Source: a virus (taxonomy: Duplodnaviria; Heunggongvirae; Uroviricota; Caudoviricetes). Taken from it: DNA of 5,384 nucleotides. Below, piece after piece: positions 3,540 to 5,384 of this stretch (position 1 is its first letter; each line of letters begins with the position of its first letter). The position numbers and the translations under genes are program-made. The stretch lies in IMG/VR virus record IMGVR_UViG_2606217105_000010; one strand, given 5' to 3'. The notes below the pieces were generated by a model that made no database searches, was not told the origin of the DNA, and was given only the letters and a program-made list of their open reading frames with translations.

Positions 3540-5384
3540 ATGGCAGTAAAGATTTCAGGTGTACTGAAAGACGGCACAGGAAAACCGGTACAGAACTGCA
3601 CAATCCAGCTGAAAGCAAAACGTAACAGCACCACGGTGGTGGTGAACACGCTGGCCTCAGAAAATCCGGATGAAGCCGGGCGTTACAGCATGGACGTTGA
3701 GTACGGTCAGTACAGCGTTATTCTGTTGGTGGAAGGATTCCCGCCATCACATGCCGGGACCATCACCGTGTATGAAGATTCTCAACCCGGTACGCTGAAT
3801 GATTTTCTCGGTGCCATGACGGAGGATGATGCCCGTCCGGAGGCACTGCGCCGTTTTGAGCTGATGGTGGAAGAGGTGGCGCGTAACGCGTCCGCGGTGG
3901 CACAGAACACGGCAGCCGCGAAGAAATCAGCCAGCGATGCCAGCACATCAGCCCGTGAGGCGGCAACCCGTGCGACTGATGCTGCAGGCTCAGCACGAGC
4001 AGCCAGCACGTCAGCCGGACAGGCCGCGTCGTCGGCTCAGTCTGCGTCTTCCAGCGCAGGAACGGCATCAGCAAAGGCCACTGAAGCATCAAAAAGTGCT
4101 GCCGCTGCAGAGTCCTCAAAAAGCGCGGCGGCCACCAGTGCCGGTGCGGCGAAAACGTCAGAAACGAATGCGGCAGCGTCACAACAATCAGCTGCCACTT
4201 CTGCATCCACCGCGACCACGAAAGCGTCAGAAGCAGCCACCTCAGCCAGAGATGCGTCGGCTTCAAAAGAGGCGGCAAAATTATCAGAAACGAGCGCAGC
4301 CTCGAGCGCCAGTAATGCCGCTTCCTCGGCAACGGCGGCAGGAAATTCCGCGAAGGCGGCAAAGACGTCTGAGACAAACGCTAAGTCCTCTGAAACGGCA
4401 GCAGCACAGAGTGCCTCCGCAGCAGCAGGCTCAAAAACAGCGGCTGCGTCGTCTGCCAGTGCAGCGTCAACAAGTGCCGGGCAGGCCTCAGCCAGTGCTA
4501 GCGCCGCCGGAAAATCGGCAGAAAGCGCCGCATCGTCCGCTTCAACAGCCACAACGAAGGCTGGCGAAGCCGCTGTACAGGCCAGTGCAGCAGCGAGGTC
4601 TGCTTCCGCAGCGAAGACATCCGAGACGAACGCGAAAGCGTCGGAGACCAGCGCAGAATCCTCAAAAACGGCTGCCGCATCGTCCGCCAGTTCGGCGGCG
4701 TCATCGGCATCATCTGCGTCTGCTTCAAAAGATGAGGCGACCAGACAGGCGTCAGCAGCGAAGGGCAGCGCCACGACGGCATCCACGAAGGCGACAGAGG
4801 CTGCTGGCAGTGCGACAGCGGCAGCACAGAGCAAAAGTACGGCGGAATCCGCGGCAACGCGCGCCGAGACAGCAGCTAAACGGGCAGAGGATATTGCATC
4901 CGCCGTGGCGCTTGAGGATGCAAGTACGACGAAAAAGGGGATAGTACAGCTCAGCAGTGCGACCAACAGTACGTCTGAAACGCTGGCGGCAACGCCAAAG
5001 TCAGTAAAATCAGCCTATGACAATGCAGAGAAACGTCTGCAGAAAGACCAGAACGGCGCTGATATACCCGATAAGGGACGCTTCCTGAACAACATTAACG
5101 CGGTCAGTAAAACAGACTTTGCTGATAAGCGTGGTATGCGTTATGTGCGGGTTAACGCTCCTGCAGGTGCAACATCTGGAAAATATTACCCTGTTGTTGT
5201 TATGCGTTCTGCTGGCTCAGTAAGCGAACTGGCATCAAGGGTCATTATCACCACGGCAACGCGAACCGCAGGCGATCCGATGAATAACTGCGAGTTTAAT
5301 GGATTTGTTATGCCTGGTGGCTGGACTGACAGGGGGCGTTATGCTTATGGAATGTTCTGGCAATATCAAAACAATGAACGAGCC
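3540..5384 (+). CDS. stf: Side tail fibre protein Stf, 3'-partial; lambda-like N-terminal domain plus Ala/Ser/Thr-rich shaft, then a divergent distal module
   Basis: ATG at 3540, preceded by a G-rich stretch (GGGG 3531-3534) as a weak Shine-Dalgarno. I translated this frame by hand and it stays open to the window end. It is absent from the supplied ORF track, presumably because it has no stop inside the window. N-terminus MAVKISGVLKDGTGKPVQNCTIQLKAKRNSTTVVVNT...GQYSVILLVEGFPPSHAGTITVYEDSQPGTLNDFL matches my recollection of lambda Stf (orf-401). The conserved tail-fibre motif KKGIVQLSSATNSTSETLAATPKSVK is present near 4930-5010. Confidence 0.88.
   Translation, partial: MAVKISGVLKDGTGKPVQNCTIQLKAKRNSTTVVVNTLASENPDEAGRYSMDVEYGQYSVILLVEGFPPSHAGTITVYEDSQPGTLNDFLGAMTEDDARPEALRRFELMVEEVARNASAVAQNTAAAKKSASDASTSAREAATRATDAAGSARAASTSAGQAASSAQSASSSAGTASAKATEASKSAAAAESSKSAAATSAGAAKTSETNAAASQQSAATSASTATTKASEAATSARDASASKEAAKLSETSAASSASNAASSATAAGNSAKAAKTSETNAKSSETAAAQSASAAAGSKTAAASSASAASTSAGQASASASAAGKSAESAASSASTATTKAGEAAVQASAAARSASAAKTSETNAKASETSAESSKTAAASSASSAASSASSASASKDEATRQASAAKGSATTASTKATEAAGSATAAAQSKSTAESAATRAETAAKRAEDIASAVALEDASTTKKGIVQLSSATNSTSETLAATPKSVKSAYDNAEKRLQKDQNGADIPDKGRFLNNINAVSKTDFADKRGMRYVRVNAPAGATSGKYYPVVVMRSAGSVSELASRVIITTATRTAGDPMNNCEFNGFVMPGGWTDRGRYAYGMFWQYQNNERA
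3883..4905 (+). repeat. Low-complexity Ala/Ser/Thr-rich imperfect tandem-repeat region inside stf (fibre shaft)
   Basis: About 340 codons dominated by Ala, Ser and Thr with recurring motifs. A(A)KTSETNA occurs three times with its Lys codon at 4152, 4362 and 4614 (spacings 210 and 252 nt). STATTKASEAA / STATTKAGEAA / STKATEAAGSA recur. The DNA copies differ at synonymous positions (gcgaaaacgtcagaaacgaatgcg; gcaaagacgtctgagacaaacgct; gcgaagacatccgagacgaacgcg). Confidence 0.75.

Follow-up and report, generated by a model that had tools for sequence, protein, structure and literature searches.

The gene considered here is stf, which codes for the side tail fibre and lies at the end of a 5,384-base stretch of viral DNA, IMG/VR virus record IMGVR_UViG_2606217105_000010, referred to in the following as the window. 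The window very probably holds the first 615 codons of a Rac-type stf of a lambdoid prophage or phage of Escherichia coli, whose product would continue through a mid-fibre cassette to a lambda/T4-type tip and whose 3′ neighbour would be tfa. Judged by its sequence, the fibre shares with that of lambda the tail-attachment domain and the proximal coiled coil as far as the Pfam repeat PF03406. Past this repeat the hinge and distal shaft of lambda are replaced, the replacement opening with a QNGADIPxK connector and going on into a beta-sandwich domain, here called the knob. The non-lambda segment is best read as an internal mid-fibre cassette and not as the receptor-binding tip, and the gene as a near-identical copy of an already known and catalogued type, the StfR side tail fibre found in E. 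coli prophages.

Identity of the gene

The window covers part of a lambdoid late operon, with J, lom and the 5′ part of stf (Table 1), an order found in lambda and in all relatives examined. The start of stf is the ATG at nucleotide (nt) 3540, which coincides with the start of lambda orf-401 in blastn and blastp alignments, and the reading frame, the same as that used in a first-pass annotation of this DNA, gives 615 amino acids (aa) with no stop before 5384. Over all 615 aa, the 128 aa after the PF03406 motif included, the product is 96.9% identical to StfR of the Rac prophage of E. coli K-12 (b1372, 1120 aa), and the gene is thus of a known type. Identity to Stf of phage 2H10 is 96.3% over 615 aa, and the Stf proteins of PhiR34_1 and 2H10 are 96-97% identical to that of the window. 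The few substitutions relative to K-12 StfR include S488 for A at the junction and R514 for C.

The DNA gives the same picture. From nt 4878 to the window end, 29-30 of every 30 nt agree with Rac, colinear with the K-12 StfR cassette, and nt 4930-5384 recur at 98-99.6% identity in nine phage records, including 2H10, Kati, PhiR34_1, Chlobot, ev099 and mEp332. The closest matches to the whole window are E. coli 40EC (97.5%) and phage 2H10 (95.7%). A deep word-indexed protein search yielded nothing but fragments cut off at contig ends. Nt 5000-5384 are present in 1586 of 5426 complete E. coli genomes (1967 places), often under the label stfR, and the pre-junction shaft is present in 3727 (5622 places); from these 1967 places against 5622, about a third of lambda-type stf copies continue in the StfR-like way. 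At the junction itself, codon 5001-5003 of the window is TCA (Ser, in ATPKSVK), whereas Ala stands there (ATPKAVK) in all relatives compared, and because of this difference many E. coli matches begin at query base 3.

Table 1. Features of the window, with positions counted from its first base.
Feature	Position (nt)	Strand	Remarks
J, last 925 codons	32-2809		
lom	2876-3475		
stf 5′ part, StfR-type side tail fibre	3540..5384	+	615 codons, open at window end
N-terminal tail-attachment domain PF08400 (prophage tail fibre N-terminal)	3540..3941	+	Pfam E=4e-72, aa 1-134
Ala/Ser/Thr-rich proximal coiled-coil shaft	3942..4937	+	38% Ala, 24% Ser; GC at second codon positions 0.80
PF03406 (Phage tail fibre repeat), core GIVQLSSATNSTSETLAATPK	4923..5045	+	Pfam E=1e-21, region scanned alone
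Junction J1, SVK, last lambda-like bases	5001..5009	+	Similarity ends at 5008
Connector SAYDNAEKRLQKDQNGADIPDKGRFLN	5010..5090	+	Common to P2-like gpH, other lambdoid Stf types and the end of the Mu constant part Sc
Junction J2	5075..5098	+	Divergence point of StfR-, Turner-, Mu-S′- and P2-type fibres
First 98 aa of the ~180-aa beta-sandwich knob (StfR aa 518-697)	5091..5384	+	Cut by window end
Knob signature DPMNNCEFNGFVMPGGWTDRG (DPMNNCxFxG...GGWxDRG)	5274..5336	+	Most conserved part of the knob

The break from lambda at the PF03406 motif

Two nested junctions lie in the visible part of stf, J1 after the PF03406 motif and J2 about 30 aa further, after the QNGADIPxK connector. The motif GIVQLSSATNSTSETLAATPK takes up aa 467-487 (nt 4938-5000). 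In blastn against lambda, nt 3540-4448 align with lambda 19650-20558 (86.8%) and nt 4753-5008 with lambda 20548-20803 (79.7%), and no alignment goes past 5008. When identity is counted ungapped per 30 nt with the motif as anchor, it is 28 and 27 over the motif, 13 at 4998-5027 and 2-9 from there on, which is chance level; the break is abrupt and well outside what chance would give. For the protein comparison, the Ur-lambda Stf (774 aa) was rebuilt from the two reading frames of lambda PaPa (orf-401 and orf-314), and against it the 128 aa past the motif score no better than E=0.39. The first-pass annotation had described a switch of modules immediately after the motif, and this is borne out by both comparisons, with no colinear continuation of lambda Stf in the rest of the window. 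It had also stated that the protein follows lambda up to the motif. This holds insofar as the alignment runs from the start codon to nt 5008, but the shaft is longer than that of lambda by about 305 nt (~105 aa; nt 4449-4752, a gap in the blastn alignment) and protein identity upstream of the junction is only 72%. The shaft of K-12 StfR has the same length as that of the window. For a tandem or recent duplication behind the longer shaft, Tandem Repeats Finder reported nothing and self-blastn gave only weak matches of 45-67 nt.

Breaks at J1 are also seen in other lambdoid phages, at 4999-5026. By these alignments the PF03406 motif marks a mosaic boundary among lambdoid stf genes, in agreement with its proposed role as a junction, and tail-fibre mosaicism at this motif was already described in work of 1989-1992, according to the passages of PMC3945230 that cite it. 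As in lambda-type Stf, the proximal Ala/Ser-rich coiled coil terminates in the PF03406 repeat. The repeat also matches Mu S (8e-18) and P2-like gpH (3e-21). PF03406 has no match in T4 gp37 or gp34, and blastp with motif plus connector also finds nothing in either, so that the first-pass list of fibres with the motif stands for Mu and P2 and has to be shortened by T4.

Two side observations concern the same motif. In the Stf proteins of SPF_0923 and mEp460_ev081 (records L010 and L011, aa ~471-540) it occurs twice, with AAYDLANGKYTAQDATTAQK between the copies, and such a direct repeat could serve as a site of unequal exchange. In addition, a 221-aa open reading frame (ORF) on a 4.97-Mb contig (P0001) joins a lysozyme-like N-terminus (PF00959) to the PF03406 motif and knob; a rearranged prophage or an assembly error is the presumed cause.

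The connector and the second junction

In the protein alignment of lambdoid relatives the connector follows the pattern AVK-x-AYDNAEKRLQKDQNGADIPxK, and residues 139-171 of Mu S (8ju3) match the connector region. Past J2, StfR-type fibres read GRFLNNINAVSK and Turner carries a divergent homologue of the same module, PhiR29_2, SPF_0923 and mEp460_ev081 read GKDTFTKNIGAC (Mu-S′-like), and the P2-like gpH of P24A7b runs on in a fourth way. The DNA match of P24A7b is limited to nt 4931-5092 (83-84%), and the matches of Turner and PhiR30_1 end at 5098, that of PhiR29 at 5069 and those of other phages at 4999-5026. Lambda leaves at J1 (~5000-5009) and the StfR-, Turner-, PhiR29_2- and P2-type fibres part at J2 (~5075-5098); the single junction reported in the first pass is J1, and J2, about 30 aa downstream, had been missed. 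In the Mu record the left boundary of the G segment, gixL (TTATCCAAAACC/TCGGTTTACAGGAA), lies in S immediately behind LVQLTSATDSPSETLAATAKAVKIAMDNANARLAKDRNGADIPNKPLF. Because gixL directly follows LVQLTSATDSPSETLAATAKAVKIAMDNANARLAKDRNGADIPNKPLF, motif and connector can be taken as homologous to the end of Mu Sc, and J2 as the positional equivalent of gix.

The alternative cassette of PhiR29_2 that starts with GKDTFTKNIGAC (record L009, Stf aa 502-645) is 72% identical to Mu S′ (record L012, Mup52), the G(-) variable part, in the stretch immediately within the G segment. In PhiR30_1 (record L008, 8540-11933) stf is annotated as three separate coding-sequence pieces, which suggests an isolated phage with a disrupted side-fibre gene, comparable to the frameshift of lambda PaPa.

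Cassette, tip and chaperone in full-length relatives

The continuation of the gene was examined in five full-length relatives with the cassette, namely K-12 StfR, 2H10, PhiR34_1, 40EC and Turner, the last with a divergent homologue. Against Ur-lambda Stf, StfR aligns over aa 1-509 (gapped, 61.5%) and again over aa 903-1120, which match lambda 529-774 at 71-72% identity. StfR 488-902 (~415 aa) has no lambda counterpart and replaces lambda aa 383-528 (146 aa), a segment that spans the hinge (394-422) and the distal domain (423-525) of the Ur-lambda fibre (PMC12617516). At the other end of the protein, the PF08400 region corresponds to gpStfN plus linker of the same structure (PMC12617516).

Pfam finds PF08400 (1-134), Gp34_trimer (663-762), Collar (907-954) and Phage_fibre repeats in StfR. 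In a sequence search of the PDB, StfR aa 488-520 and 813-907 match the Mu tail fibre S 8ju3, StfR ~aa 706-777 match T4 gp34, and the tip matches the receptor-binding needle of T4 gp37, 2xgf, with E=1e-87. The fibres of K-12, 2H10, PhiR34_1 and 40EC have a full length of ~1117-1134 aa, with Gp34_trimer and Mu-S-like modules ahead of the tip. All five relatives end in a gp37-like collar and His-rich needle tip followed by tfa, which lies directly 3′ of stf in each. The identity of Tfa to its lambda counterpart is 82% in 40EC and 93% in the other four. The first-pass proposal to look for a tfa-like gene downstream therefore has a positive answer in every full-length relative examined. By analogy with these relatives, the knob of the window fibre would be followed by a T4-gp34-type trimerisation module and a Mu-S-like stretch. 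The fibre would then return to a lambda/T4-gp37-type collar-and-needle tip with its receptor-binding loops, and a gene for a lambda-type Tfa chaperone would come next.

The loops of the T4 gp37 tip are the receptor-binding part of that fibre. In the alignment of tips, a hypervariable stretch lies between the His-rich repeats, and the same StfR-type cassette carries at least three tip versions (K-12; 2H10; PhiR34_1/40EC). The same tips are also found with other cassettes, that of K-12 in Turner, that of 2H10 in PhiR29_2 and SPF_0923, and that of PhiR34_1 in mEp460_ev081. Because cassette and tip assort independently, the window sequence does not predict receptor specificity. The first-pass annotation had taken the segment after the motif as the distal, receptor-determining end of the fibre and hence as relevant to host range; neither part of this claim is supported, as the segment corresponds to part of StfR 488-902 and the tip that follows is lambda/T4-gp37-like in all five relatives. 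Host-range calls from the first non-lambda residues would mislead, since the receptor-binding loops come ~500 aa further on and vary independently of the cassette. The receptor-binding role of gp37-type tip loops is echoed in the work on the Ur-lambda fibre (PMC12617516).

The knob module

The knob (StfR aa 518-697) is 65% identical over 180 aa to P1-like Sv′. Matches to it were found by tblastn in P1-like S, mEp460 Stf, the L-shaped fibre of T5/BF23, and long fibres of rV5-like and Aeromonas T4-like phages. An exhaustive search gave 112 cluster representatives, 51 of them at E<=1e-10, and the position of the knob varies from residue 22 to ~2000 in proteins of 350-2682 aa. By this distribution the knob is a portable module among the fibres of many unrelated phages. 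In an alignment of 31 sequences with ~30% mean identity, the columns of the signature are invariant or near-invariant.

The Pfam scan returned no model for the knob. An AlphaFold model from eight near-identical fragments had a predicted local distance difference test score (pLDDT) of 51.8 and was discarded, and the 31 diverse sequences were used instead. The resulting AlphaFold 2 model predicts a compact all-beta domain for residues 1-170, mostly at pLDDT >90. In a library of predicted viral structures this model matches other tail fibres only, and the knob has no solved structural homologue. It is rather improbable that the knob is a lateral, secondary binding site for glycan or lipopolysaccharide; if it were, the mid-fibre cassette would add to host range independently of the gp37-type tip. 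The knob would merit a Pfam entry and structure determination.

Base composition

The DNA had been described in the first pass as more AT-rich after about nt 5000. GC content does fall, from 0.60-0.64 before the junction to 0.46-0.49 after it, but the codon-position analysis with lambda as control points to amino-acid composition as the main cause, because GC at second codon positions falls from 0.80 to 0.47 where the Ala-rich shaft ends and the GC content of lambda stf drops at the same place (0.60 to 0.53). GC at third codon positions (GC3) is 0.42 in the window segment and 0.40 in the whole cassette, compared with 0.49 in the equivalent segment of lambda, and this residual difference gives weak support at best to a different history of the cassette. 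Composition as a sign of foreign origin was largely rejected on the same analysis.

Origin of the cassette and alternative explanations

The favoured working mechanism is homologous recombination in short conserved islands, with an invertase as a possible ancient contributor. Cassettes would be exchanged by crossovers in the PF03406 motif, the connector and the collar start at GAPIPWPSD, and the same unit boundaries would sit at the crossover sites of the Mu and P1 invertases. Such an exchange may alter the length of the distal arm, the hinge geometry and the knob content, and would leave the primary receptor specificity as it is. In laboratory work lambda has been shown to recombine with Rac across stf-tfa, and old exchanges of stf between families have been ascribed to stf-associated invertases (PMC3945230).

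A larger part for such enzymes would mean that an invertase of the PinR/Gin/Cin type made the junctions at a gix-like site at J2 and that stfR-tfaR-pinR is the relic half of an invertible segment. J2 is positionally homologous to Mu gixL, the cassettes that alternate there are homologous to Mu S′ and P1-like Sv′, which are variable parts of invertible segments, and in Rac, 2H10, PhiR34_1, Turner and mEp460_ev081 the gene after tfa codes for a PinR-type invertase; an invertase role in ancient stf exchanges has also been proposed (PMC3945230). This origin is nevertheless unlikely. Of the 26 positions of gix, J2 in the window matches 12 at most and the best-scoring place anywhere in the window 16, and the core AAACCNNGGTTT, allowing up to two mismatches, was not found in the stf-tfa-pin stretch of 2H10 or Rac. 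A second, inverted set of variable fibre and chaperone (Sv′/U′) was not found in Rac, 2H10, PhiR34_1 or Turner, each of which has a single stf-tfa set. The sole inverted pair between J2 and the 3′ end of tfa lies in conserved coding sequence for the Tfa C-terminus, where the reverse strand reads GSAIPD, and looks like chance. The closest genome, 40EC, is without an invertase, lambda diverges at J1 and not at the gix position, and the flanking islands, 80-97% identical, are enough to let homologous recombination take place. The low number of gix matches in the window and the missing core motifs in the relatives led to the rejection of J2 as a live or relic invertase site.

That the whole distal half from the motif on, receptor end and chaperone included, came from a non-lambda donor with a different receptor specificity would agree with the stop of lambda similarity at nt 5008, which is not regained inside the window, and with a cassette GC3 somewhat below that of the equivalent lambda segment, and the window end precludes a direct refutation. 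Such an origin is very unlikely given the five full-length genes with the post-junction sequence of the window, which regain a lambda/T4-type tip (71-72% to lambda, E=1e-87 to 2xgf) and a Tfa 82-93% identical to that of lambda, and whose hypervariable tip loops vary among fibres with one and the same cassette. A history without any recombination, in which the post-motif region is the fast-diverging part of a vertically inherited lambda stf, would draw on the quick evolution of distal tail-fibre regions and on the identity of just 72-87% between lambda and the window even upstream of the junction. It has next to no probability, as identity goes from 27-28 per 30 nt to chance within ~30 nt, the replacement differs in length (415 against 146 aa) and in domains (Gp34_trimer and knob, both without a counterpart in lambda), and P1-like and other unrelated fibres have the segment too, 65-72% identical.

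The reading of the window as the first part of a Rac-type stf with an internal cassette is thus preferred, and some points weigh against it. The window ends 98 aa into the knob with the remainder of this gene unseen, and everything past nt 5384 is drawn from the five relatives. The nearest whole-window match reaches just 97.5% identity. That the cassette acts on geometry and not on specificity is deduced. The literature search turned up no experimental work on which receptor StfR uses or on what the cassette does, and the knob lacks a solved homologue.

Neighbouring genes and overlapping reading frames

Similarity to lambda DNA is also lost at 2368-3347, which makes this interval the second one swapped in comparison with lambda. 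The receptor-binding end of J, its last ~150 aa, is only 38-50% identical to lambda J, compared with 90-98% for the remainder of J, and lom of the window is 45% identical to lambda lom. Over the GCN-rich DNA of the shaft (3763-4966), ORFs of 335, 309, 204 and 119 aa are found in other frames and on the minus strand, which look like composition artefacts; one such shaft-overlapping ORF is annotated in the lambda record as hypothetical orf206b. Genes for PinR-type serine invertases lie just past tfa in records L002 (8637-9227), L003 (8682-9272), L004 (11085-11675), L007 (12572-13162) and L011 (12302-12892). The invertase appears to be an orphan, with no detectable gix-like sites and no second inverted fibre/chaperone set.

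Significance for annotation and engineering

The type of gene and the kind of mosaic junction are already known, and the practical value of the window lies in annotation and engineering, with little to offer as discovery; the one point that may repay further work is the knob domain, so far uncharacterised. Engineered chimeras of lambda Stf have been fused at R393 (lambda-P2) and at S528 (K1F, K5, KL106) (PMC11338833). R393 and S528 flank the segment that is naturally replaced in StfR-type fibres, whose natural boundaries lie after the PF03406 motif and connector and ahead of GAPIPWPSD. Because these boundaries nearly coincide with the two fusion points, their use as safe swap points is supported.

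Comparison with known fibre systems

Among the known systems, the T4 long tail fibre is comparable to the full-length relatives only in part. Residues 812-1026 of gp37 match StfR 903-1120 at 68%, and gp34 has the Gp34_trimer module; neither protein has the PF03406 motif or connector, nor any similarity to the part inside the window. Fibres of the P2 gpH type (Peduovirus P24A7b) share with stf the ~160-nt island of motif and connector, where the DNA is 83-84% identical, and end like the full-length relatives in a collar and tip of the gp37 type; they differ in their PF12571 N-terminus and in the cassette past J2. In the S/S′ fibres of Mu and the S fibres of P1-type phages, which have invertible G and C segments, PF03406 and QNGADIPxK likewise close the constant part, and the Gp34_trimer module is present. 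Mu S′ is 48% identical to StfR 815-900 and P1-like Sv′ is 65% identical to the knob. Mu and P1 fibres have another N-terminal attachment domain, and the lambdoid loci are without crossover sites or a second inverted set.

The Ur-lambda Stf has PF08400, the Ala/Ser-rich coiled coil and PF03406 in common with the window, as well as the gp37-like tip and Tfa in common with the full-length relatives. Its shaft is ~105 aa shorter, and it has aa 383-528 where the window type has the ~415-aa cassette. Closest of all are StfR of Rac and the Stf proteins of 2H10, PhiR34_1, Kati, ev099 and mEp332. The differences seen from StfR are a few substitutions, with the C-terminal 500 aa, the tip type, tfa and any invertase lying outside the window, and the likeness extends over the J-lom-stf order, 96.9% identity to the StfR protein and 98-99.6% identity of the post-junction DNA.

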